Below, in pieces: positions 28,815 through 62,692 of a stretch of DNA of 64,000 bases. The notes under the pieces are model-generated. The model saw only the letters and a list, made by a program, of their open reading frames with translations. It had not been told where the DNA came from and searched no databases. This stretch comes from Candidatus Caldarchaeum sp. (GTDB lineage Archaea; Thermoproteota; Nitrososphaeria_A; Caldarchaeales; Caldarchaeaceae). The stretch is from assembly GCA_038885755.1 (NCBI GenBank), contig JAVZZH010000003.1, forward strand, positions 64,001-128,000, written 5' to 3'. The translations under genes were made by a program, and so were the position numbers. Numbering within the stretch: the stretch's first letter is position 1; every line of letters begins with the position of its first letter.

Positions 28815-29967
28815 ATGCTTATCTGGACATCCTCGTTGTTAAGAGGGAAATGCTCTTTCGCAGCCCTTTCACAACAGCCCTTGCTACCCTTAGTCAGCTC
28901 TGAACTTGGGCTGACTGCCGGCGGAGCAGGCCTGCTAATGTTTATGCTTTATCTAACTACGGCAGTAGCAGCACCCCCATCCGGATTTCTAACCGATAGA
29001 GTCAGGATGAAGTTTCTCGTGCCATTTTCAACCTGCATGCTTTCGTTAGTTTAGTGCTGCTGGCTTTCGTAAAAGATTTCCCTACCGCGGTTGCCGCCGT
29101 GTTAATCATGGGCATCGGTTATTCTATTTCCGGGCCTCTCAGCACTAAGATGGTTGCAATAAATTTTAAAAATAAGGAGAGAGCAACAGCTATAGGGTTT
29201 AAGCAGAGGGGGACGTCAAGCGGTAGCACTCTAGCAGCTCTAACTCTGCCGTCCATAGCTGTCGTTGCACAAAGTAGCTCAGCATTCATAGCGGTGATTG
29301 CTGCAGCAGCTATGCCGTTTATTCTTGTGAACTACGTACGTGCCAACAACCACGGGAGAGCTGAAGGTGAAAGTTATATGCTCAGAGCCGTGTTTGAATA
29401 AAGGAATATTTTCTTCCTGCTGAGCTCGTTTGGTTTAGGCTTTTCCATGTTCGTTATGTTGACACACTTACCTCTCTTTCTTACACATGATGTAGGTTTG
29501 AGCGTAGTCCAAACCGGATTCATGCTGGCCTTGGTTCAGTTTTTCAGCATTTTGGGTAGAATAGGTCTAGGTGTTTTAGCCGATAGGTTTTTCAGAAGAA
29601 CACGCATAGTGGTTCTCTTGCTGGTAGGCTTTATTGCCGCAATAGCTTCAACTGTTTTTCTTTTTCTGTTAAGCCTGAGATATGGATGGCTGTGGCTACG
29701 ATTGCCTTTCTCGGTTTCTTTCTCTTCAGAGCTATCGCTGTGGTGTTCACGGTTGGAGCAGAGCATGTCGGCACAACAAGCGGAATGACCTACTTTACCC
29801 TAGCTTTTGGGAATGCAGCCGACCCATTGGCATTCGGCCACGTTGCAGACATCGTAGGCCGCTGGGTTGCATGGCTGTTGTATGTGTTAGCGGTTTACCT
29901 CAGCTCCCTGGCCCTCTTTTTCGCATGGCTGTATCAGACAAAGCCTAGCATGCGATTTTCAACATAG
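28815..29967 (+). pseudogene. MFS transporter pseudogene
   Basis: Four consecutive ORF fragments with MFS motifs (GFLTDRV, KERATAIG, GRIGLGVLADRF, FGHVADIVG) broken by frameshifts and stops. Confidence 0.85.
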
Positions 29968-31183: not shown

Positions 31184-31533
31184 GGTAATGTCCGGATAAG
31201 CGTTTCCTGTTCTTAGTGTTTGGTGGTGTATAGTTTTCTCATCCCCTGTGCGTGGCTTGTGGCGCTGGGCTTGCCGTGGAGTACAGCCTTCCTCTCCTGA
31301 AGAGCCTCTCAACCCTGTTCCTAATACCGGGCCTCTGGTGTTCATACTCTATCCCAAGCCTCTGCAGAGCCCATGGATACCATGCACCCCTCCTACAGCC
31401 ACCGTGAAACATATACCCAAGAACCGCTAAAACCTCAACCCCACGGCTTTTTCGCTAGGCTTAAAACAACCCGAAGCAACATCCACACAGATAACATCCC
31501 GCCTCTAAACACACCTCTTATCAGGACACTATC
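31184..31533 (-). mobile_element. Internally deleted IS6-family element with both TIRs (350 bp)
   Basis: TIRs GGTAATGTCCGGATAAG (31184-31200) and CTTATCAGGACACTATC (31517-31533), complementary at 14 of 17 positions; internal WYPWALQRLGIEYEHQRPGIRNRVERLFR typical of archaeal IS6 transposases. Confidence 0.8.
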
Positions 31534-46087: not shown

Positions 46088-47062
46088 TCAGTCATATCTT
46101 GGTGCTATCTCGTTAGCAACATACTCCAATACATCCAAATCCCTTGTGAGAGGTATGAGGTTAAAGTGGGTTAGACCCGCTGAAATCTGTTCATCTATGC
46201 GCTTAGCCAGTTCCACTTTATCACATATGAAATACTGTTTCCTAGCCTCCTCGAATGGCATAGCCAAAACCTGTGACACATCCTCTGCAGCTTTGTTCTC
46301 ACGTCCGTCGAGTAGGTAGACGTATTTGTGGGACATCATTGGAAAGTTGCTGTCATCCTTCCTAAGAGACTTGAGATGTTTACGGAGTATCTCTATGCTT
46401 TTTCTGATATATTCCACCGGTACGTATGTCGCTGCATACCAGCCATCACCCAGTTCGGCAGCCCTTCTCAACAGCCTCTCAAACCGGCTTGGGTCGTTCA
46501 ACGACCTGCCGCCGGCTCCAATTATTATTGGTGGGTGGGGTTTCTGGATTGGCTTCGGCTCTAGACGTATATCCTTGAACCTCCAGAATCTACCCTCCCA
46601 ACTGGCTGACTCCTCAGTCCAGAGCAGCTTCATTATTTTTACGGCCTCCTCGAATCTCCTACCCCTCTCCTTCATACTAACTCCCACAAGCTCGTATTCC
46701 TTGTCGAGCCAGCCAATTGCTACACCTAAGATGAATCGGCCGTTGGAGATGACATCCAGGGTCGCAACCTCTTTAGCCAGGACTCCGGGGTTTCTCAAGG
46801 GAAGTATTACTATGGCTGTACCTATCTTCACCTTCTTGACAGCCGAGGATACGGCGGCCATAGTGACTAGGGGCTCGTACCAGCTTGTGGAGAGAAGCGG
46901 TGGGGCCATTACAAAATGTTCTGCATGCCAGATGGATGTGTATCCCAGCCTCTCAACCTCTCGACAGTAAGAGGCCAGCTCCTCACCCGACATGTATCCC
47001 CCCTTCCAAGTTCCGCCACAGTAGTCGGGCAAAACAACTCCGAAAGTTGCTCTATTCCTCAC
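46088..47062 (-). CDS. LLM-class flavin/F420-dependent oxidoreductase
   Basis: ERLGYTSIWHAEH, LPLRNPGVLAKEVATLDVISNGR, PKPIQKPHPPI. Confidence 0.9.
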   Translation of the reverse strand: MRNRATFGVVLPDYCGGTWKGGYMSGEELASYCREVERLGYTSIWHAEHFVMAPPLLSTSWYEPLVTMAAVSSAVKKVKIGTAIVILPLRNPGVLAKEVATLDVISNGRFILGVAIGWLDKEYELVGVSMKERGRRFEEAVKIMKLLWTEESASWEGRFWRFKDIRLEPKPIQKPHPPIIIGAGGRSLNDPSRFERLLRRAAELGDGWYAATYVPVEYIRKSIEILRKHLKSLRKDDSNFPMMSHKYVYLLDGRENKAAEDVSQVLAMPFEEARKQYFICDKVELAKRIDEQISAGLTHFNLIPLTRDLDVLEYVANEIAPRYD

Positions 47063-47083: not shown

Positions 47084-48463
47084 TTATTTAACTACTACTT
47101 TTAACCGCCTCCCCTGACTGTACGCCGACCCGGCACTCTGACACTCTCCAGCATCCGGTCTAGTAGCAAGCCATGCCACCACCCTGCATGGAGCAGCCTC
47201 ACAGCCCACAATGGGTATCGGGAAGGCGGTAATCCACACCCTCCTCACCCCGTCCAGCGGTGTTAGATTCAAGTTCTCCAGGATCAATATATCATTAGAT
47301 AGCAGTATCTTGTGGATTGGATAGTCAAATCCATCCTTCCTCATGTGATACGGTATTTCTGGTGTTAGGGTGTCAACACCTATCATACTCACCTTAGCAT
47401 CACACAGCCACCACGCCACTTCCTCGGATATGAAGGGATGTAGATTGTATTCGGGCTGCCTGAAGAAGCCACCCCATCCAGTATTAAAGAATACCATAGA
47501 GTTTTCCCCGACAAGCTCTTCATATCCGCTGACATCACGGAGGGTGATGGGCTGGTTGCAGTTCTTCCTTACCTTGATTATGACACATTCTCCCGCAAAC
47601 CTAGAGAGATCATACTCCTCTATCGTCTTCCCCCTCTCGAAAAACTGTCTAGGCGTATCTACATGTGTTCCTATGTGGGAGGGCATGTAGATATTTGTAA
47701 TGTTGACGGAGTCAACCATCACGTTGCAGGCTGTCCTTATCTGGGGCGGGGTCAGTATCTTGGGAATATGGGGCATTCCATTGAATATTGGTTGGGATAG
47801 ATCTACGATCAGGGGCCTGTTAAGCTTATTCCCCTTGGCTCTCGTGAGGGCGTCCACTCTTCTCCTCAACTCACGTACTGTGAGTGTCTCCTCAACCACC
47901 TGACGGAATAACCTATCCTGCAGCGCCCTATCACGCACCTTTAGTAATACCCTAGCATGTAGAAGCCCGAATCTATTGGTATCGATACTACCGCTCCGGA
48001 CCGCTCTTATGATATTGGGGCTTAGCGACAGCAGCTGCACCCGGTTATAGACGTATTCTTTACGGACACCGACCAACCGCGCAATATCCTCATATGTTCT
48101 GCCAAACCTAGCTTTCCATGTCTCGAAAAGGTCTGCCTCCTCTAGAGGGTTCTTGTCCTTCCTAAACAGGTTTTCCACCGCATTCTGTATGAGAACATGC
48201 TCATCATCGAGCTCTTCCACAATCGTACTGATCTTGTTCAGCCCTGCAAGCATGGCTGCCTCGAGACGCCGCCTACCCCAGACTAGCTCGTAAAACCCGT
48301 CTGCCGTGGGTCTGACCTTTATAGGTACATCCACATCACCCCTCGCCTTAAGGGATTTTGCAAGCTCCACCACATCGCCCAAGTCCTTCCTCTCGGGCAG
48401 CCAGCTGATGAGACGTATCTTCTCGACCGGGATCTTCTTGATTTTAGAGGAGCTATTCATCAC
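47084..48463 (-). CDS. ParB/Spo0J-type N-terminal domain + HTH fused to a cyclase-family (kynurenine formamidase-like) domain
   Basis: PIKVRP...YELVWGRRRLEAA, VENLFRKDKNPLEEA, HTH TYEDIARLVG..KEYVYNR, LHARVLL; C-terminal DLSQPI, HIGTHVDTPRQF, FNTGW, IGVDT, HKILL...ILENL, AAPCRV. Confidence 0.88.
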   Translation of the reverse strand: MMNSSSKIKKIPVEKIRLISWLPERKDLGDVVELAKSLKARGDVDVPIKVRPTADGFYELVWGRRRLEAAMLAGLNKISTIVEELDDEHVLIQNAVENLFRKDKNPLEEADLFETWKARFGRTYEDIARLVGVRKEYVYNRVQLLSLSPNIIRAVRSGSIDTNRFGLLHARVLLKVRDRALQDRLFRQVVEETLTVRELRRRVDALTRAKGNKLNRPLIVDLSQPIFNGMPHIPKILTPPQIRTACNVMVDSVNITNIYMPSHIGTHVDTPRQFFERGKTIEEYDLSRFAGECVIIKVRKNCNQPITLRDVSGYEELVGENSMVFFNTGWGGFFRQPEYNLHPFISEEVAWWLCDAKVSMIGVDTLTPEIPYHMRKDGFDYPIHKILLSNDILILENLNLTPLDGVRRVWITAFPIPIVGCEAAPCRVVAWLATRPDAGECQSAGSAYSQGRRLKVVVK

Positions 48464-48526
48464 TTTTTGACGACCTAGGTATATATATAAGCAGTTGGTT
48501 TCGTGCCCCTGCTAGGGCTTTAAGTT

Positions 48527-48645
48527 GCCGGCTGTTAAACCCGTTATCCTAGTGTCCGGATAAGGACGGTATTTAATTACTGGATGGTTTCTCTCCTCTT
48601 GTATGGCTCTAGGCTGGCTGTCAAAAGCGTTATCCGGACACCACC
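48527..48645. repeat. 90-bp element bounded by a perfect 12-bp inverted repeat, plus a 23-bp imperfect direct repeat
   Basis: GTGTCCGGATAA (48552-48563) and TTATCCGGACAC (48630-48641); direct repeats 48527-48549 and 48613-48635 identical at 19 of 23 positions. Confidence 0.8.
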
Positions 48646-48693
48646 ATCCCAGTTTGCACAAGATTTATATGCCTTACAGCGGAGCCACAATCC

Positions 48694-50100
48694 ATGAAGG
48701 AGAAAAACTGTGAAGCCGCTGGAGAGCAACGAATCACCAGACGGAGGGCCATCAGCAATGCTGTAGCCGCAGGCGTAGTGGTCGGTGTTGGGATAGTAGC
48801 CGGACTGGGGGGGTATTTCGCCGGAGCATCGTCAAGCGGTAGGGTTGAAACCGTTACACAGAAGGAGACAGTTGCAGTGGGCGGGCAGACAGTGACCGTG
48901 ACAAACACAGTGACACAGACTACAACAGCCACAGTCACAGGAACCGCGGGATCTGACAAACCTGTGATCATTGGATACACACTACCCAAGACCGGTGGAT
49001 TCGCTGCAAACGGTGTGGTACATGATATCGCTGATGAGGTGGCTATAAGGAAAATAAACGAGACTGGCGGATTCTTAGGAAGACCTGTCAGAAGGCTTGT
49101 CTATGACGACCGCTCCGACATTTCACAGATACCTCCTCTCTATGAACGGCTGATAACACAGGACAAGGTGGACCTCATCGTGGGTCCATACGCTACACCA
49201 TTCATAGCAGCAGCCATGCCTGTGGCGGAGAAATATAGAAAGGTCTACATCTTTGACTCATACACACTTCCCAAACAGGCTACCTATGAATTCGCGTTCT
49301 CCAGCTGGGCCACAGGATACAACACTGACATCGAATGGCCGACTCTATTGTTTGAGGCTTTGCAGAACTCGGCAGGTAAGCTTCCCAAGCGTCTTGTCGT
49401 CGTGCATAGCACGCATCCCGGAGCAACATTCGTGGCCAGCGGTGTCCCCACTGTTGCAGAGAGATTCGGGATCGAGGTGCTTGATGTGATCAGATACGAG
49501 CTGGGTACCACAGACTTCCTACCGATAGCGACACGGCTGAAGGAGCTGAAGCCGGAGTTCCTCCTACAGGCTGGGCTCGTGCTCGATGAGAGTAACATGA
49601 GACAAGCTTTGGACAAAGTTGGCTTCATCCCGTATGGCCATTCAAGTCTCTGGCCTTCGGTGGGCGCATTGCTCGGCCTCGGTCCACTAGGAGATGGGTT
49701 GATAAGCCAGTCTGTCTTCGAGGCGCATATACCGTTTACGCAAGATGCAGAGGCCAGATATTTTGTTGAAAACTACCAGAAGCGGGCGAGAGAGGCTGGT
49801 CTAGCCTACTGGAAAGCTGATACACAGAGTGGCACGAGCTACGCCATGTTCCAGATATTGAGGGAGGCTGTCAGGGGGTCAGGCTCTCTCAACGATGAGG
49901 ACATTGGTAAGTGGCTCAAGAAAAACAAGGTTGATACAATATTCGGAGAGCTCACTTTCGACGGCCCCAACAATTATGGACCCATGAAGACTTGGATAGC
50001 TCAGATTCAGAACGGCGAGCAGATAGTAGTGTGGCCACCAGACTACGCAAAGCCAAGGTCGAAGCTACAGTATCCATCACCACTAGCCAAGGGCTACTAG
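48694..50100 (+). CDS. ABC transporter substrate-binding protein (Liv/HAAT type) with twin-arginine signal and Thr/Val linker
   Basis: ITRRRAI followed by a hydrophobic helix, TVTVT linker, INETGGFLGRPV..YDD.SD, DKVDLIVGPY. Confidence 0.9.
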   Translation: MKEKNCEAAGEQRITRRRAISNAVAAGVVVGVGIVAGLGGYFAGASSSGRVETVTQKETVAVGGQTVTVTNTVTQTTTATVTGTAGSDKPVIIGYTLPKTGGFAANGVVHDIADEVAIRKINETGGFLGRPVRRLVYDDRSDISQIPPLYERLITQDKVDLIVGPYATPFIAAAMPVAEKYRKVYIFDSYTLPKQATYEFAFSSWATGYNTDIEWPTLLFEALQNSAGKLPKRLVVVHSTHPGATFVASGVPTVAERFGIEVLDVIRYELGTTDFLPIATRLKELKPEFLLQAGLVLDESNMRQALDKVGFIPYGHSSLWPSVGALLGLGPLGDGLISQSVFEAHIPFTQDAEARYFVENYQKRAREAGLAYWKADTQSGTSYAMFQILREAVRGSGSLNDEDIGKWLKKNKVDTIFGELTFDGPNNYGPMKTWIAQIQNGEQIVVWPPDYAKPRSKLQYPSPLAKGY

Positions 50101-50131
50101 TAGGTCGGAACCCACACCAACAGCGGCTCAA

Positions 50132-51001
50132 GTGGATGGCATGGTATCGGTTGCGGGGGTAATCCAGAGCCTCCTGACAGGCACGCTAGTGGGAGGATTC
50201 TACGGCCTGTTTGCGCTCGGACTCTCAATGTCCTGGGGGGTCTTGTACATCATAAACATGTCCTACTTCCCATTCGCCGTCCTGTCCGCCTACATAACAT
50301 ATGCGGTTGTGACAACCCTCGGCTTCGACCCATTCATCTCCCTCATTTTTTCCATCCCCAGTTTCTTCATCATCGGCATCCTCATGCAACTCTTCTTCAA
50401 CAGATTCAAGATAGACATATTCAGGTCGCTGATAATCACCTTCGCCCTATTCGTGGTGGTTGAGAATACACTGATTTATGTATGGACGGCTGATGTTCGG
50501 CGCGTACCAGTGGGACTACTTGGCAGCTCGTTCTTAATCGGCTCCATGTATGTTCCAATAGGCGAGCTCATAGCCTTCTTCATAGGGGTGGCCATAGTTT
50601 TTGCCAACATGTTTATACTGAAGAAGACGAGGTTGGGGCTGGCTCTTAGGGCAGTAGCTGAGAATAGGGAGGCATCAGCCATGTGGGGTGTGAACTATTC
50701 TAGAATAGCCCTAGTAGTCGGTGGCCTGTCAATGTGCTATGTTGCAATAGCTGGATTATTCATCGCAATATTCTTCCCCTTCACCCCAAGCCATGGAAGC
50801 CTCTTCATAGGGAGGATATTCGCAGTTACAATCTTTGGAGGTCTTGGAAGCGTCACAGGAGCCTTCATAGCTGGTATAATACTCGGAGTCGCCGAGTCTG
50901 TGGCCGCCATACTCTTCGCACCGTCATGGTCGCCTCTAGTAGTGTTCCTACTGCTTTTGATTATACTCGTAGTCAAGCCCAGCGGGCTGACGTGGCGATG
51001 A
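50132..51001 (+). CDS. livH: Branched-chain amino acid-type ABC permease
   Basis: YGLFALGLSMSWGV..IIN, TRLGLALRAVAEN, GGLGS..GA. Confidence 0.85.
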   Translation: MDGMVSVAGVIQSLLTGTLVGGFYGLFALGLSMSWGVLYIINMSYFPFAVLSAYITYAVVTTLGFDPFISLIFSIPSFFIIGILMQLFFNRFKIDIFRSLIITFALFVVVENTLIYVWTADVRRVPVGLLGSSFLIGSMYVPIGELIAFFIGVAIVFANMFILKKTRLGLALRAVAENREASAMWGVNYSRIALVVGGLSMCYVAIAGLFIAIFFPFTPSHGSLFIGRIFAVTIFGGLGSVTGAFIAGIILGVAESVAAILFAPSWSPLVVFLLLLIILVVKPSGLTWR

Positions 51002-51960
51002 GGGCTAGAAGACAGACAGCCTATACGATTATCATGTTATCCTCATCATTCATAATACTGCTCGCATTACCCTACATGGGGATTTCAGCGTTCATGATAT
51101 CCTTTCTGTTATCCGTATTCATTTGGGTTACGTTGGCGGTCAGCTGGAACATATTATCGGGCTACGTAGGCTACTTCAGCTTCGGACACACGGGGTTCTT
51201 CGGCTCGGGAGCATTCGCATCAGCCGTCACCGACTTCTTCTTCGAGATAGACTACTTCCTAACAATTCCCATAGCTGGTGCTGTTACAACGGCGATGGCC
51301 GCGGGGCTGGGGCTTGTCACATTCAGGCTCAGGAGGCTCCGTGGCGAGCTCTTTGCACTAACAACGCTGGTCCTAACCTCTGTCTCCTCAATAGTAGTGA
51401 TAAACAACTGGGGGAGCGGCATTGTCATGCGCTCAGTTAAGGCCTTCTGGCCATTCATCAGCATACCGCATATTTTCTACACTCTAGCGCTAATATTGTG
51501 TTTTATCAGTATCTATATCTCGGTGGCGATATATCGGTCGAGGCTTGGTCTAAACTTCTTCGCAATAAGGGATGATGAGGAGGCTGCAGAGGCCATAGGT
51601 ATCAACACCTTCAAGAGTAAGATGATAGCTTTTTGCATCAGCTCACTACTGGTAGGTGTGGCTGGAGCGGTCTTTGGCGGCTGGATAAAGTATGTCTGGC
51701 CCGAAACCGTATTCAGCTTAAACTATTCGTTGTATCCCATACTTATGACCATACTGGGAGGTATGGGAACCTGGATTGGGCCAATCGTTGGCGGTGTAAT
51801 CCTCACCACAATCTTCCAAATTGTAGCTGGTGGAGAGGCCGTGCTTAACAACATCATCTTAGGCTCGCTACTGGTGGTCGTGATGATATTCCTACCACGT
51901 GGACTCTTCAACCTTGTACTATCCGGCTACAGGAGAGTCAGGAGTCCAAGGCATCTGTAG
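50998..51960 (+). CDS. livM: Branched-chain amino acid-type ABC permease
   Basis: SWNILSGYVGYFSFGH, FALTTL, AIRDDEEAAEAIGIN, ILGGMGT..GP; start set at ATG 50998. Confidence 0.85.
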   Translation: MRARRQTAYTIIMLSSSFIILLALPYMGISAFMISFLLSVFIWVTLAVSWNILSGYVGYFSFGHTGFFGSGAFASAVTDFFFEIDYFLTIPIAGAVTTAMAAGLGLVTFRLRRLRGELFALTTLVLTSVSSIVVINNWGSGIVMRSVKAFWPFISIPHIFYTLALILCFISIYISVAIYRSRLGLNFFAIRDDEEAAEAIGINTFKSKMIAFCISSLLVGVAGAVFGGWIKYVWPETVFSLNYSLYPILMTILGGMGTWIGPIVGGVILTTIFQIVAGGEAVLNNIILGSLLVVVMIFLPRGLFNLVLSGYRRVRSPRHL

Positions 51961-52009
51961 GCTTTGCCTGCTAAAACGTTTATAAGCACCATGGGAGCGG
52001 AGAGCGTGG

Positions 52010-52711
52010 ATGTCCCTGCTGAAACTCTTGAATGTGAGCAAGTCATTCGGTGGACTAAAGGCGGTTAACAAGGTTTCGATGGATGTTCCTCCCAACGTAA
52101 TTTTGGGTTTGATCGGGCCCAACGGCTCAGGCAAGACCACATTAGTCAATCTCATCACAGGGTTCTACAGGCCTGATTCGGGCGACATTTTCTTCAAGGG
52201 TGAGAAGATAACAGGACTCAAGCCCTACCATATCGCCAACAGAGGCATAGTCAGGACCTTCCAGCTGACAAGAGTGTTCAAACAACTGACAGTTATGCAG
52301 AATCTGCTGACAGCCTTAAACTCCCACAGGGATTACAACCAGCAGAAGATGTCAGAAATTCTAGCTATGATGGGGCTTCAGCGGAAGGAGCATGTGTTGG
52401 CGGCGAATCTGTCTTATGGTGAGCAGAAACTTCTCGAGATAGGTAGAGCTCTCATGAAGGACCCTGATCTACTTATTTTGGATGAACCTGTCAGCGGGAT
52501 CAGCCCAACCATAATCGAAAGGCTAACCCAGCTGGTAAGGGATTTGAAGGGGTTGGGCAAGACAATCCTAGTCATAGAACACAACCTGAATGTAATTAGC
52601 ACAATATGCGATAGAGTCGTCGTCCTTAATTATGGAGAGAAGATCGCTGAAGGTACCTTCAATGAGATCTCGCAAGACCAACGGGTTATAATGGCATACA
52701 TAGGCGAGTGA
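52010..52711 (+). CDS. livG: ABC transporter ATP-binding protein
   Basis: KSFGGLKAV, GPNGSGKTT, RTFQ, LSYGEQK, LDEP, IEHN. Confidence 0.88.
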   Translation: MSLLKLLNVSKSFGGLKAVNKVSMDVPPNVILGLIGPNGSGKTTLVNLITGFYRPDSGDIFFKGEKITGLKPYHIANRGIVRTFQLTRVFKQLTVMQNLLTALNSHRDYNQQKMSEILAMMGLQRKEHVLAANLSYGEQKLLEIGRALMKDPDLLILDEPVSGISPTIIERLTQLVRDLKGLGKTILVIEHNLNVISTICDRVVVLNYGEKIAEGTFNEISQDQRVIMAYIGE

Positions 52712-53460
52712 GTTTCATGAGTTTGGAGATACGGGATCTAACGGCTGGATACGGGCATACTGAGGTCCTGCACGGTGTAGACATCACAGTTGTTGCCGGT
52801 GAGACAACAGCCATGATAGGGCCCAACGGGGCTGGTAAGACAACTCTCCTGAAGACTATAATGGGTCTTGTCAAAGCCCGTAGTGGAACTATCCTCTATA
52901 AGGTTGACGGCAGGATTGAAGACCTTAACCGCTCTGGCCCTCACACCCGTGTGAGGTCTGGGATATGTATGGTCCCCGAGAGCGGGAGAGTCTTCCAAAA
53001 GATGACCGTCCTGGAAAATCTTAGATTCGCTGCTTATACAATCAAGGATAAGGGGATCATTGCTGAGCGCATGAACAGGGTTTTTCAACTCTTCCCCATA
53101 TTAAACAAGAGACGAAATCAGTTGGCCGGTACTCTAAGCGGTGGGGAGCAGGCGATGCTGGCTATCGGGAAGGCCTTGATGCTCAGCCCAAGACTAATCC
53201 TCTTGGACGAGCCCTCGATAGGGTTGGCGCCCAAGGTGGTGAGCGACGTCTACTCTAAGCTGAGGGAGATTAACGCATTAGGTGTAACCCTCTTCATAGT
53301 GGAGCAGAACGTTGATAAAGCTTTGAGCGTTGCGACGCATCTCTATGTGCTCAGCCAAGGCAAGATAGTTTACTCGGGAAGTCCTAGGGATGTTAAGAAG
53401 GAGGAGCTATTCGCCAGATACTATGCCGGCTATGGTGAGGTGACGCAAAAAAATAGATAG
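52708..53460 (+). CDS. livF: ABC transporter ATP-binding protein
   Basis: GPNGAGKTT, AGTLSGGEQAMLAIG, LDEPSIGLAP, VEQN. Confidence 0.88.
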   Translation: MSFMSLEIRDLTAGYGHTEVLHGVDITVVAGETTAMIGPNGAGKTTLLKTIMGLVKARSGTILYKVDGRIEDLNRSGPHTRVRSGICMVPESGRVFQKMTVLENLRFAAYTIKDKGIIAERMNRVFQLFPILNKRRNQLAGTLSGGEQAMLAIGKALMLSPRLILLDEPSIGLAPKVVSDVYSKLREINALGVTLFIVEQNVDKALSVATHLYVLSQGKIVYSGSPRDVKKEELFARYYAGYGEVTQKNR

Positions 53461-53496: not shown

Positions 53497-55725
53497 ATGA
53501 TAGGGGACTCTATACCGCCTGAGGAGAACCTCCGTCTAGTCACGGGGAGAGGGGTATACGCTGGAGACATGAATATTCGTGGAGCCCTATATCTAGGTGT
53601 TGTCAGAAGCCCCTATCCACGTGCAATGGTCAGGCGGGTTGATGCCTCCGACGCCTCAAAGGTGTCGAGACTGGTAATCTTGCGGTCTGACCTCGAAACC
53701 ATCTTCAAGACCGTGCTTATGCCTGCGATGGGGTTCCCCGATGTAAAGATGGCTAGGATGCCGATCTTAGCGTCTGACAAGGTGAACTTTGTGGGTCAGC
53801 CTGTGGCGGCCGTCATCTGTGATGACCTTTACACCCTCCAGGACGCAGTAGAGCTTGTGTCAGTTGACTATGACCCACTGGAGCCTGTCGTTGACCCTAA
53901 GAGGGCTCTTGATGGCGGGTCTCCCATTATACATCCTGAGATCGGCTCCAACATATGTGTGTATAGGGAGCTGGGGGGAGACGTTACTGAAGCCTTCCGC
54001 AGAGCTGACGTCGTGTTGGAGGATGAATATGAGATTCATAGAGTAGCTCCCGCACCGATGGAGCCTAGGGCTGCTGTGGCCGTCTATGAAAATGGCAGAC
54101 TCACCCTATATGTAGCGTCGCAGGGAGTCTTCATATTCAAGCAACTTCTGCTGGAAAACCTAGCACTCCAAGAAGATCATGTACGAATAGTTCAGGCTGA
54201 TGTTGGCGGGGCGTTCGGAAGCAAGACACCACCCTATCCAGAGCATCTACTAGCCGTATATGCTTCCATGAAGCTCGGTAGGCCGGTAAAATGGGTTGAG
54301 ACGCGTAGGGAGCATCTGACGGCTTCAAGCCATTCAAGGGATATTCGGGGAAGAATTTCACTGGCGGCCGGCAGGGAGGGGCGCATACTGGGGATAAGGG
54401 CGTCCATAACCGCGGACATCGGCGCATACGCCTTCTTCGTAAACCCCCTGTTCGGAGTCTTTACTGGACAGCAGATAACCGGACCTTATGACGTTAGGGC
54501 AGCCCATGTGGATGTGACCGCTGTCTACACAAACAAGACACCTACAGGGCCATACAGAGGGTTCAGCAGGCCCGAGGCAGCGTTCTTCTATGAGAGGGCG
54601 GTAGACATGCTGGCAGACGAGCTCGGCCTTGATCCGGCTGAAGTCAGGTTAAACAACCTAGTGAAGCTGGAGAGTATGCCATACAAGACACCTCTTGGGC
54701 TTGAGCTTGACCCAGAGGACTACCTTAACATCATGTCGCGAGCGTTAACGCTCTTCAACTATGATCGACTAAAGACGGAGCTGGAGGCTGAGAGAAGAAG
54801 TGGAAGGATGGTGGGAATGGGGCTGGCCAACTATTTCGAGCTAAACAGAGCCAGTTTTGGACGTGGTGAGTCAGGTCTAGCTAGGCTTGAGCGGGACGGT
54901 ACAGTCTCCATAGCGACAGGAGCAGGCCCACACGGCCAAGGACTCGCAACAATACTTCGGCAGATGGCGGCTTGGGAGATGGGCGTAAGCGTTGAGAGGA
55001 CAAGATTTCTAGGCCCAGACTCTGACCTTATGAAGACAGGGGTGGGCACCTTCGGAAGCCGCAGCACGGTAATCAGTGGCGAGGCAGTCATATCAGCTGC
55101 CAAAGCCTTGAAGCGACTCATACTGGAGCGTGCCTCGTCGCTCCTTGGCGTTCCCCTATCCCAGCTCTCATATTCGAATGGATACATAACAACTGCGGGC
55201 AACCCATCCACCACAGTTGACTTGAAATACATAGCTGAGAAGGCAGGACCGCTGGAGGCGCAGGTTTTCGTTGAGGGGAAGGATATATTCTCCTACGGTG
55301 TCCACATGGCTATTGTCGAGGTGGACGGAGAAAGCGGGGCAGTGAGGCTGCTCAGATACGCATGCGTGGATGATGCGGGCCGTGTAGTTAACCCACTATT
55401 AGCTGAGGCCCAGGTTGTAGGTGGTGTAGCTCAGGCCGTGGGGCAAGTATTCTATGAAGAGATATTCTATGACTCAGATGGCCAGCCCCAGAACCTAACA
55501 ATATCAGATGCTGGGTTGCCAACAGCCCTCGAGATGGGCCCAGTAGAATCCATGCTCCTTGAATATCCGTCGCAGTACTCACACGGAGCTAGGGGCATCG
55601 GTGAGGCGGGAACAATTGCCGGTCTACCCACCCTGGTTAGGGCTGTCGAGAACGCGTTGGGCAGGCGGGTCAGGAGCACAAATCTCAAGACTGAAAGGAT
55701 ATGGCGTATGGCAAATTTGGGATGA
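53497..55725 (+). CDS. Xanthine dehydrogenase family molybdopterin-binding (large) subunit, CoxL/CutA-like
   Basis: PMEPR, DVGGAFGSK, GPYRGFSRPEA, HGQG, GTFGSRS, DDAGRVVNP, GIGEAG. Confidence 0.92.
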   Translation: MIGDSIPPEENLRLVTGRGVYAGDMNIRGALYLGVVRSPYPRAMVRRVDASDASKVSRLVILRSDLETIFKTVLMPAMGFPDVKMARMPILASDKVNFVGQPVAAVICDDLYTLQDAVELVSVDYDPLEPVVDPKRALDGGSPIIHPEIGSNICVYRELGGDVTEAFRRADVVLEDEYEIHRVAPAPMEPRAAVAVYENGRLTLYVASQGVFIFKQLLLENLALQEDHVRIVQADVGGAFGSKTPPYPEHLLAVYASMKLGRPVKWVETRREHLTASSHSRDIRGRISLAAGREGRILGIRASITADIGAYAFFVNPLFGVFTGQQITGPYDVRAAHVDVTAVYTNKTPTGPYRGFSRPEAAFFYERAVDMLADELGLDPAEVRLNNLVKLESMPYKTPLGLELDPEDYLNIMSRALTLFNYDRLKTELEAERRSGRMVGMGLANYFELNRASFGRGESGLARLERDGTVSIATGAGPHGQGLATILRQMAAWEMGVSVERTRFLGPDSDLMKTGVGTFGSRSTVISGEAVISAAKALKRLILERASSLLGVPLSQLSYSNGYITTAGNPSTTVDLKYIAEKAGPLEAQVFVEGKDIFSYGVHMAIVEVDGESGAVRLLRYACVDDAGRVVNPLLAEAQVVGGVAQAVGQVFYEEIFYDSDGQPQNLTISDAGLPTALEMGPVESMLLEYPSQYSHGARGIGEAGTIAGLPTLVRAVENALGRRVRSTNLKTERIWRMANLG

Positions 55726-56229: not shown

Positions 56230-56860
56230 TGGGCTTGAACGGGGACCAGCCGGGAATCTCTCCCAGTAACATCTATGTATAGACTCTCGCTGGTCATGGG
56301 CTTGCCAGCAACTCTGTCATGGAGGAAGTCTGACAAGATGTGGAGCCAGTATACGTTGGGGAGCGCATGTATCTCTCCCTCTACGTCATCGTCTTCTTAA
56401 GCCCCGCAAGCTCTTCATAGAAGGCATACGCATCAGCTATTGGAGCTAGCTCATCATCCTCCCCCGCAATTATTAGGAAAGGTTTTGTGATCTTCTTCCC
56501 AAACCCCTTCAACGTCAACTTAGCGGCGAATGCGTCGAACGTCTCCTCATCGTATATGTCGGTCATGAACATGTACCGCATCTTGAACGATGGCGAAGCC
56601 GAGTTGAGCAGAGTCTTATGGCCGGGCTCAAAGCATGGCATGGCAACCGCCGTTGCCTTGACATACTCGTTGTTATACGAAGCTACTTGGGCAGCCCAGA
56701 ATGAGCCCATGCTCACACCATAGACACAGATGTTATCCGGGTCGACATCCTTCCTACTTTATGCATGTTCGGCCAGCCCTTCCGAAGTTTTCTTCAGTCA
56801 TTGGAATCTTGCGTCTCGGGTTAAGGGATTCTCCTATGCCAGGCCCATCTATTGAGGGGG
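56230..56860 (-). pseudogene. Alpha/beta hydrolase pseudogene (FrsA / dihydroxypseudooxynicotine hydrolase-like)
   Basis: IDGPGIGES, nucleophile GVSMG, AGEDDEL, GEIH; N-terminus missing, frameshifts present. Confidence 0.78.
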
Positions 56861-62618: not shown

Positions 62619-62692
62619 CGCCGGGGGCCCGATTTGAACGGGCGACCGACGGGTTAACAGCCCGCCGCTCTACCAGGCTGAGCTACCCCGGC
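62619..62692 (-). tRNA. tRNA-Asn(GTT), no intron, CCA not encoded
   Basis: GCCGGGGTAGCTCAGCCTGGTAGAGCGGCGGGCTGTTAACCCGTCGGTCGCCCGTTCAAATCGGGCCCCCGGCG folds into a cloverleaf with anticodon GTT. Confidence 0.97.

Follow-up and report, generated by a model that had tools for sequence, protein, structure and literature searches.

A ParB-type nucleotide- and DNA-binding module fused to a cyclase-fold domain in Caldarchaeales-type archaea: a candidate ligand-sensing regulator of catabolic genes

What use might an archaeon have for a protein that joins the front half of a ParB protein to a domain of the kynurenine formamidase type? The question is raised by a gene at positions 47084..48463 on the reverse strand of a 64,000-nucleotide stretch of DNA from the hot-spring archaeon Candidatus Caldarchaeum sp. 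(contig JAVZZH010000003.1, positions 64,001 to 128,000; hereafter the window), in which a ParB nucleotide-binding domain and a ParB-type helix-turn-helix (HTH) are followed in one reading frame by a whole cyclase-family domain. On balance I consider it probable that the product is a lineage-specific one-component, ligand-sensing ParB-type transcription regulator of nearby catabolic genes. A preliminary description of the window had arrived at a similar interpretation, and the analysis presented here shows how far its individual claims hold.

The open reading frame (ORF) comprises 459 codons without a single internal stop (stop codon 47084-47086) and can be read from a GTG at 48463, giving 459 residues, or from an ATG at 48460, giving 458. 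The latter is the likelier start because the identical database copy of the window protein, P0002, has 458 residues. Pfam scans of the window protein returned ParB_N (PF02195, residues 7-99, 48167..48445) at 50.8 bits against a cut-off of 26.3, HTH_ParB (PF17762, residues 103-206, 47846..48157) at 66.1 bits against 22.6, and Cyclase (PF04199, residues 220-368) at 95.7 bits against 23.1, which confirms the uninterrupted three-domain frame that had been described. Among the NCBIfam models, TIGR00180 (parB_part) scored 90.3 bits, above its cut-off of 58.45; the Noc equivalog TIGR04285 reached 111.6 bits, under its cut-off of 315, and the arylformamidase model TIGR03035 aligned at residues 219-429 with 59 bits, under its cut-off of 223. 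With the structural alignments, these matches delimit the cyclase or kynurenine-formamidase-like domain to residues 219-432 (47168..47809). A short variable linker precedes it (residues 207-218, 47810..47845, placed from the model and the family alignment), and across the fused proteins the conserved residues 203 and 221 on either side are separated by 15-40 residues. The basic C-terminal tail (residues 433-459, 47087..47167) is variable, with a family identity of 5-15% and a predicted local distance difference test score (pLDDT) of about 30. Every motif quoted earlier for this protein is present: WGRRR at residues 62-66 (Box II), ENLFR at 97-101 (Box III), NPLEEA, LHARVLL, LTVREL, and HxGTHxD within HIGTHVDTPRQ at 263-273, followed later by His384 and Glu396.

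An AlphaFold2 monomer model built from a 23-row family alignment folded both halves confidently (mean pLDDT 82.3), with low confidence at residues 234-257 and over the final 25 residues. Its predicted template-modelling score was only 0.49, as expected of two domains on a flexible joint. For the N-terminal half Foldseek found structures of ParB, Noc and KorB, for the C-terminal half cyclase-family hydrolases and KynB, with target template-modelling (TM) scores of 0.72-0.78 overall and 0.74-0.78 for the C-half matches 3krv, 8hmo, 4co9 and 1r61. Alignments of the N-terminal half to 7bnk/7bnr, 6sdk, 1vz0 and 6t1f span the full N-domain and HTH. The architecture is not peculiar to the window: at least 29 protein clusters, 31-87% identical to the window protein, have it too, and the comparisons below draw on 29 fused proteins.

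Is the cyclase half still an enzyme? In KynB of Bacillus anthracis (BaKynB), as set out in the accessible text of PMC4243253, the ligands of the two zinc ions are His50, His54, Asp56, His161 and Glu173; His60, with which the signature ends, is no ligand, and hydrogen-bonds the bridging water as the proposed proton shuttle. HMMER alignments to 4cz1/4co9 and to 1r61 place H263, H267, D269, H384 and E396 of the window protein at the five ligand positions and Q273 at the position of His60, in agreement with the earlier statement that the metal ligands are kept and the last His is Gln. None of the 29 fused proteins has a His at the His60 position, where Q, K, L, E, F, A or Y is found instead. The stand-alone comparison set consisted of 133 proteins under 300 residues from an exhaustive representative search. 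Among the relatives in it that carry the strict motif, 98 of 99 have the His, and the sole exception, P0151, begins in the HTH region and shows the motif of the P0021 clade, which identifies it as a fragment of a fused protein. The His is also present in 12 more of the stand-alone proteins (11 with variant motifs, Pro-to-Ala or Thr-to-Cys/Ser, and the fragment P0230); the remainder are five cyclase-type proteins without a recognisable motif and seventeen ParB-type proteins. Absence of the catalytic His thus goes hand in hand with the fusion, and judged by its residues the cyclase half looks like a pseudo-enzyme that has kept the fold.

The same half may also supply the dimer contacts that the protein would otherwise lack. 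The ParB C-terminal dimerisation domain PF23552, present in most bacterial matches, is absent from the window protein and from all fused matches, and the whole cyclase domain takes its place, as the preliminary description had it. BaKynB is an obligate dimer in which the beta2-beta3 hairpin of the partner completes the pocket, again according to the available part of PMC4243253. A two-copy model of residues 214-436 gave a homodimer score of 0.87, against 0.00 for the best of three controls, with runs agreeing in at least 85% of contacts and a partner pLDDT of at least 88. Of the proteins solved as one-chain pairs, 20 of 30 attained the mark set for this score, as did 1 of 23 among those solved as single chains, a calibration that holds only roughly for a model made, as here, with a custom alignment. 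As KynB-like dimers have already been solved, the score is a measure of likeness to them and not proof of dimerisation, so that the earlier claim of a dimerising cyclase domain is upheld as a prediction. The predicted interface (residues 223-227, 251-263, 272-276 including Q273, and 412-429) appears to match by position the elements described for KynB, with the partner hairpin completing the pocket; such a dimer explains the disorder of residues 234-257 in the monomer model.

The alternative that survives best is a bifunctional enzyme-repressor, in which the cyclase domain would still be an active metal amidohydrolase using another proton shuttle and the ParB/HTH part would tether it to DNA or regulate its own gene. 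All five metal-ligand positions are retained in the window's clade, the predicted dimer would form a pocket, the neighbours are all enzymes, and the closest solved relatives, 1r61 and 8hmo, are hydrolases without an assigned substrate. In some fused clades a His stands one residue before the canonical position (DSPHQ, DTPHL) which, together with the kept ligands, makes residual or altered catalysis possible. I nevertheless judge this account unlikely, given the absence of the catalytic His from every fused protein and the variety of residues substituting for it, as expected at a position that has ceased to matter. The first ligand, too, is missing from several clades, which have K, N or R in place of H, so that metal binding does not extend to all fused proteins. 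Finally, the cyclase is the least conserved folded domain: in distant members, identity to the window protein is 62% for ParB_N, 45% for the HTH, 36% for the cyclase and 10% for the linker, a gradient that would fit a constant switch and a sensor diversifying with the pathway.

The ParB half raises the corresponding question of nucleotide turnover. For MxParB of Myxococcus, the accessible text of bioRxiv 10.1101/2021.05.05.442810 names Q52 and E93 as the catalytic residues; the Q52A and E93A variants have about wild-type nucleotide affinity and form rings even without parS, and they barely hydrolyse cytidine triphosphate (CTP) and release DNA 7- to 60-fold more slowly, whereas R95A abolishes CTP binding. 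By comparison of the PDB sequences, Q52 is the Gln of QPR and aligns with L22 of the window protein; E93, which the numbering of R95 identifies as the Glu in GERR, aligns with R64. Residues were counted in a MAFFT alignment of the 29 fused and 94 non-fused ParB matches. At the Q52 position the fused proteins have Leu (23), Ile (2), Ala, Val and Lys (1 each) and one gap, never Gln, as opposed to Gln in 67 and Asn in 16 of the non-fused matches. The E93 position holds Arg (20), Lys (3), Tyr (3), Phe, His and Trp (1 each) and never Glu, which is found in 70 of the 94 non-fused matches. The residues for nucleotide binding are kept: R66 in 29/29 fused and 93/94 non-fused proteins, and E97, N98 and R101 in 29/29 fused proteins each and in 91, 93 and 92 of the 94 others, with G63, R65 and R66 of Box II invariant across the fused proteins. 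With the equivalents of Q52 and E93 lost and those for nucleotide binding invariant, the ParB half has the look of a module that would bind nucleotide without hydrolysing it. The preliminary description had not remarked on the loss of these two residues.

Could the nucleotide site instead serve catalysis, with the ParB/Srx fold as an ATP- or CTP-using module working alongside the cyclase and DNA binding secondary or lost? Such a nucleotide-dependent metabolic enzyme would have precedents in SerK, SbnI and Srx, which use the fold as an ATP-binding enzymatic module, and the fold binds diverse nucleoside triphosphates (NTPs), according to the accessible text of a PNAS 2025 survey (PMC12704722); the base-contacting loop of the fusion is, moreover, unlike that of canonical ParB. 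SerK, SbnI and Srx, however, have no HTH in that text, and the fusion has an HTH_ParB domain at 66 bits, whose recognition-helix residues Y139, N140, R141, L144 and L145 are invariant across the fused proteins. As Boxes II and III are also canonical ParB and the best structural matches are the DNA-binding proteins ParB, Noc and KorB, this possibility appears quite improbable.

Partition or chromosome organisation for an integrated mobile element, with the cyclase as a mere dimerisation module, fares worse still. It would account for the TIGR00180 match above cut-off, for the identity of the N-terminal half to solved bacterial ParB proteins (31-36%) and to canonical-type ParB matches (29-44%), and for the lower G+C at 22-52 kb and the patchy distribution of the gene. 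The ParA-binding motif LG(R/K)GL, however, occurs in 0/29 fused proteins compared with 34/44 canonical-type matches, and only six residues precede ParB_N in the window protein. No ParA/MinD-family gene (PF13614, PF01656) was matched in the window, the genome's best match lying on contig C1, and none was seen among the annotated flanking genes at other fusion loci. The earlier statement that the window has no parA holds; its companion, that there is no replication gene, holds for the annotated window ORFs (from 29 kb on), where no replication or integrase family was found and replication genes were not searched systematically. The only other ParB_N match in the genome is weak, at 20 bits. The genomic context varies between clades and yet is always catabolic, and the survey, in its accessible text, finds archaeal ParB-HTH proteins rarely near ParA and considers a role in segregation unlikely (PMC12704722). 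On these features the fusion is not a partition protein, and I regard the corresponding explanation as very improbable. A role in anti-phage defence was not indicated by PADLOC, none of whose models matched at E <= 0.01.

That two adjacent genes were read as one is a negligible possibility, since P0018 (256 aa, 'kynurenine formamidase'), which at first resembled a split form, starts within the linker, carries the fused-type Gln and is a truncated gene call, and since the fusion stands in a single frame without internal stop in 13 full-length matches from 12 genomes and in many independent metagenome clusters, beside six public DNA runs that contain the window stretch whole and are possibly its own source, hence not independent. 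By its recurrence in independent assemblies, the fusion is no assembly or frameshift artefact. Confinement to this assembly, with homologs that are always two genes, had been named earlier as a finding that would refute the regulator, and it was not observed. In a word-indexed protein search, 26 clusters showed the three Pfam domains together, with identities of 39-100% (P0002-P0027 without P0018). An exhaustive comparison with 1.84 billion representatives contributed P0103, P0104 and P0105 as well as the distant P0110, which is 31% identical to the window protein with its three domains confirmed; nine of the 50%-identity representatives are fused. Searched without a length filter for split or stand-alone forms, the same representatives gave only fragments of the family, P0108 apart.

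P0108 (345 aa, metagenome) is of the same ParB subtype (FIPER, EDVDIP, WGKRR) and has no cyclase domain; its C-terminus consists of a Pro/Glu/Ala-rich linker and a Cys-containing end without a Pfam match, and the N-terminal half is therefore used modularly with other C-termini. P0206 (499 aa, metagenome) joins a HIBADH-type dehydrogenase (NAD_binding_2, NAD_binding_11) to a cyclase domain that retains the catalytic His, and looks like a genuine two-enzyme fusion, in contrast to the ParB-cyclase proteins.

Within the class, 12 of 76 genomes contain a full-length match without internal stop, one of them in two copies; 11 belong to family f1 and one to family f2. In the genus of the window the full-length fusion is present in 7/13 genomes, and two further genomes of the genus (G010 and G011, 99% complete) gave only partial matches, an absence valid for the window protein as query. 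The gene is thus accessory and its distribution patchy. A pattern scan of 185,579 species genomes, one per species, made with family-specific peptides that very distant forms could escape, confirmed 12 loci, all in Caldarchaeales-type archaea (record titles Caldarchaeum, Pelearchaeum, Calditenuaceae, archaeon HR01 and a Nitrososphaerota metagenome-assembled genome). A quick maximum-likelihood tree was made of cyclase domains from 24 of the 29 fused and 101 stand-alone proteins, after exclusion of P0006, P0008, P0009, P0027 and P0103 (near-duplicates or truncated) and the fragment P0151. It placed 23/24 fused domains in one group with a Shimodaira-Hasegawa-like approximate likelihood ratio test (SH-aLRT) value of 92; P0110 lies apart on a long, weakly supported branch, with which a single origin of the fusion remains compatible. 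One genome, G013, carries two paralogues in separate catabolic clusters, 78% (L036) and 43% (L038) identical to the window protein, a pattern one would expect of pathway-specific regulators. A copy 100% identical over 459 residues was found on a short contig (C53; L007, L045) of a genome, G014, that is listed in genus g2, the window genome being in g1; binning overlap or a very recent transfer are possible sources of it.

The catabolic setting recurs as well. In the window, 21 bp downstream of the ParB-cyclase gene and on the same strand lies the gene of a luciferase-like (LLM-family) oxidoreductase (46088..47062), which by its spacing is probably in the same operon, and beyond it those of 2-oxoacid dehydrogenase E1 alpha and beta. 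A divergent ATP-binding cassette (ABC) importer occupies 48694..53460 on the forward strand, with a Peripla_BP_6 binding-protein gene (48694..50100, by Pfam) followed by two permease and two ATPase ORFs (50132..53460, forward) that, from their position, I take to be of the Liv type. Downstream of the importer is the large subunit of a molybdopterin hydroxylase (Mo-hydroxylase; 53497..55725, forward; Ald_Xan_dh_C, MoCoBD_1, MoCoBD_2). The divergence of the gene from an importer and Mo-hydroxylase operon was thus correctly described, and the whole arrangement is the same at two close orthologous loci (76-78% identity). The wider island encodes MmgE/PrpD, an aldehyde dehydrogenase, Amidohydro_2, an HpcH aldolase, three HIBADH-type dehydrogenases, an M24 peptidase, RidA, OsmC and CMD proteins. 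No transcription-factor family was found in the 30 other window ORFs scanned (20 larger and 10 smaller, not an exhaustive set), in line with the earlier remark that this is the only intact regulator-like gene in the catabolic part of the island.

Distant members, at about 40-45% identity, sit at other sites and again have degradative neighbours: LigB extradiol dioxygenase, FAA hydrolase, HAD, Rieske and a PEP-utilizers/PPDK_N pair at L040, L041 and L044; a divergent SBP_bac importer, a weak NUDIX-like ORF, a luciferase-like oxidoreductase, two UbiD decarboxylases and a Mo-hydroxylase at L043, with the same layout at L042; 3-hydroxyacyl-CoA dehydrogenase, a metallo-beta-lactamase-fold protein, an ABC ATPase, a luciferase-like oxidoreductase, CMD and M29 at L039; and M24, M20 and an amidohydrolase at L038. 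Every fusion locus examined has a catabolic setting, and divergence from an ABC binding-protein gene recurs in two separate clades with different transporter families.

Some side observations concern these surroundings. At L040 (9416-12284) and L041 (10366-13261) adjacent genes for a 611-615-residue PEP-utilizers protein and a 346-351-residue PPDK_N protein stand beside the LigB and FAA-hydrolase genes and the family members; the pair resembles the two large subunits of phenylphosphate synthase. G+C is 0.47-0.52 over about 22-52 kb of the window, compared with 0.55-0.58 before it, and a tRNA-Asn gene lies at 62619-62692 on the reverse strand, the composition being island-like. A major facilitator superfamily (MFS) transporter is in pieces at 28815-29967, with ORFs 29054-29401 and 29447-29788 matching different parts of PF07690 below cut-off, and is probably a pseudogene. 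A 111-residue ORF at 56381-56716 (reverse strand), in the gap at 55.9-56.9 kb, matches alpha/beta-hydrolase families (Hydrolase_4, Peptidase_S9) in their C-terminal part alone and is probably a gene remnant.

Where on the DNA would such a regulator act? The divergent intergenic region between the ParB-cyclase and Peripla_BP_6 genes (48464..48693) had been put forward as its target. TATA-like boxes were read by eye at 48480-48490, where the distance to the ParB-cyclase start is about 22-25 nt, and at 48665-48672, about 26 nt before the ATG of the binding-protein gene, and would be suitably placed for near-leaderless transcripts. Between them lie two inverted copies of TTATCCGGACAC (48552-48563 and 48630-48641), associated with a 23-nt direct repeat (48527-48549 and 48613-48635). 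In the genome TTATCCGGACAC has 5 exact copies where 0.15 are expected, and forms four inverted pairs. As a conserved operator it was rejected: two of the pairs enclose a ~340-bp element that does not differ between its two sites, the repeat is absent from the orthologous promoters L036 and L037, and the window has about 100 extra bases at this place. The repeats are thus poor operator candidates, a point that the preliminary description had missed; in the window strain, TTATCCGGACAC may still be bound by something.

The repeat family itself is bounded by inverted copies of about TTATCCGGACAC(TATC) and was located at 31188-31529 and 48552-48641 of the window, at 163435-163786 on contig C1 of genome G000, and at 210697-210791 and 228341-228352 on contig C2. 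Two ~340-bp copies are mutually reverse-complement and two are short versions of ~80-90 bp, and the family resembles a miniature inverted-repeat transposable element (MITE) with terminal inverted repeats. In the RNA-library run X7, only three small contigs were found, all on the luciferase-like gene (46184-47029) and two of them 93-94% alike; the ParB-cyclase gene has no X7 contig. As contigs carry neither strand nor level and missing cover is no proof, X7 speaks neither for nor against expression.

Several of these results weigh against the favoured reading of a ligand-sensing regulator. The TTATCCGGACAC repeats, missing in the orthologues, are part of a genome-wide family, no palindrome is shared upstream of 11 family genes, and four orthologous promoters conserve TATA-proximal blocks only. 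Loci compared for their neighbourhoods come from related genomes, and kin are not independent samples. The kept metal ligands and the shifted His in some clades, discussed above for the enzyme-repressor, count here too, as does the first ligand lost in others. In the ParB half, the base-contacting loop GDVDVP is nearly invariant in the fused proteins and unlike the loops quoted for CTP binders in the accessible text of the survey (PMC12704722), and the nucleotide specificity of the ParB fold is held there and in its preprint, in the parts available, to be unpredictable from sequence. With an atypical loop and a specificity that cannot be read off, I write of NTP rather than CTP. The linker is short, so a lumen that would entrap DNA and let the protein slide along it is not assured.

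For the one-component regulator favoured here, the following mechanism is proposed. The cyclase half would homodimerise in the manner of KynB, substituting for the missing ParB C-terminal dimerisation domain, and its pocket would bind, without turnover, a small amide-like compound, aromatic or heterocyclic, that belongs to the local pathway. The state of the pocket, occupied or empty, would be relayed across the short linker to the nucleotide-binding domain and the HTH, altering DNA binding or N-domain engagement. With hydrolysis disabled, the nucleotide would be a bound cofactor and no timer: the N-domain would supply an NTP-dependent conformational step, the HTH would provide DNA recognition, and the metabolite, rather than NTP turnover, would set when the protein holds or leaves DNA. 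The outcome would be control of its own operon, including the luciferase-like oxidoreductase, and of the divergent importer and Mo-hydroxylase operon. Of the regulator interpretation given in the preliminary description, the architecture, the loss of the His, the predicted dimer and the catabolic context were borne out, while binding at the divergent promoter, a sliding clamp, CTP as the nucleotide and a pathway intermediate as the ligand are all inferred.

A bolder version goes further and is tentative, rather less probable than the general reading: a naturally hydrolysis-dead, metabolite-gated ParB in which the pseudo-amidohydrolase domain, serving also as dimerisation gate, would set by its ligand occupancy, and not by CTP turnover, when the protein closes on DNA or leaves it, with the pockets of different clades tuned to different aromatic or heterocyclic substrates. 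The probability left over from the regulator and its rivals belongs to roles not considered here.

ParB-fold switches are known as segregation clamps and, more lately, as regulators of plasmids, integrative and conjugative elements (ICEs) and virulence, driven by CTP and partner proteins. None is known to read a small metabolite. If the bolder version holds, the fusion would be the first ParB to respond to a small molecule and, among transcription regulators of archaeal catabolic operons, the first of ParB type. The loss of both ParB hydrolysis residues and of the amidohydrolase catalytic His, with both binding sites kept, is the pattern expected of two enzymes turned into one allosteric sensor. 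Confirmation would add a new input logic for ParB switches and a new one-component regulator class in archaea, a thermostable ligand-controlled DNA-binding module, and a clear case of a pseudo-enzyme recruited as a sensor domain. Public records give these proteins automatic labels only ('ParB/RepB/Spo0J family partition protein', 'cyclase family protein', 'kynurenine formamidase'), and 'chromosome partitioning protein' and 'kynurenine formamidase' would then be misleading.

How does the fusion compare with systems already described? ParB/Spo0J and Noc (1vz0, 6sdk, 7bnk, 6t1f, 7nfu) align with it end to end over the N-domain and HTH (E 1e-20 to 1e-23) and share GxRR, ENLxR and the recognition helix; the fusion differs in having no ParA-binding peptide, no PF23552 and no parA, and in the replacement of the catalytic Gln and Glu by L22 and R64. 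Nearer in likely role are KorB of RK2, VirB of Shigella and BisD of ICEclc, which, as far as the accessible literature goes, likewise employ a ParB N-domain and HTH for gene regulation and not segregation, and KorB structures match the N-terminal half (8qa9_B, target TM-score 0.72; 8qa8, E 7e-6). According to the same sources these proteins are bacterial, plasmid- or ICE-borne, dimerise through C-terminal domains of their own and are modulated by CTP and partners (KorA, TrbA), whereas the fusion is archaeal and chromosomal, has a metabolic setting and an enzyme-fold C-terminus, and lacks both CTP-hydrolysis residues.

On the side of the enzymes, KynB (4co9/4cz1) and the cyclase-family hydrolases (1r61/3krv, 8hmo and the isatin hydrolase 5nna) have the same fold and the same five metal-ligand positions as the fusion, whose cyclase half is predicted to form a KynB-like dimer. 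The differences from KynB are Gln273 in place of His60, the score of 59 against 223 for TIGR03035, an insertion at about residues 370-381, and the position behind a DNA-binding module. SbnI, like SerK a kinase of the ParB/Srx fold, is also a heme-responsive regulator. The two kinases provide a precedent for the ParB fold in metabolism and, unlike the fusion, have no ParB HTH or C-terminal domains and use ATP catalytically (PMC12704722, accessible text).

The closest parallel in design may be the archaeal ParB-CBS fusions of Methanobacteriota and Haloarchaea, which, in the accessible text of the 2025 survey, combine the ParB-CTPase fold with a ligand-binding module, the CBS being a dedicated adenosyl-ligand sensor, and are proposed to tie the binding of nucleotide to metabolic state (PMC12704722). 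The ParB-cyclase proteins belong to a Caldarchaeales-type lineage and have an HTH, and their candidate sensor is an amidohydrolase in decay. The archaeal ParB-fold fusions highlighted by that survey are those with CBS, ASCH and MT-A70 (PMC12704722); cyclase, formamidase and PF04199 go unmentioned in the accessible main text of the survey and of its preprint, whose supplementary tables may list the combination, and a full-text literature search found no description of a ParB-cyclase fusion, in line with the preliminary description, which knew of none. The kind, a regulator with a ParB fold, is therefore already known; its cyclase-fused form is, as far as could be found, undescribed, and offers a real chance of a new regulatory principle.

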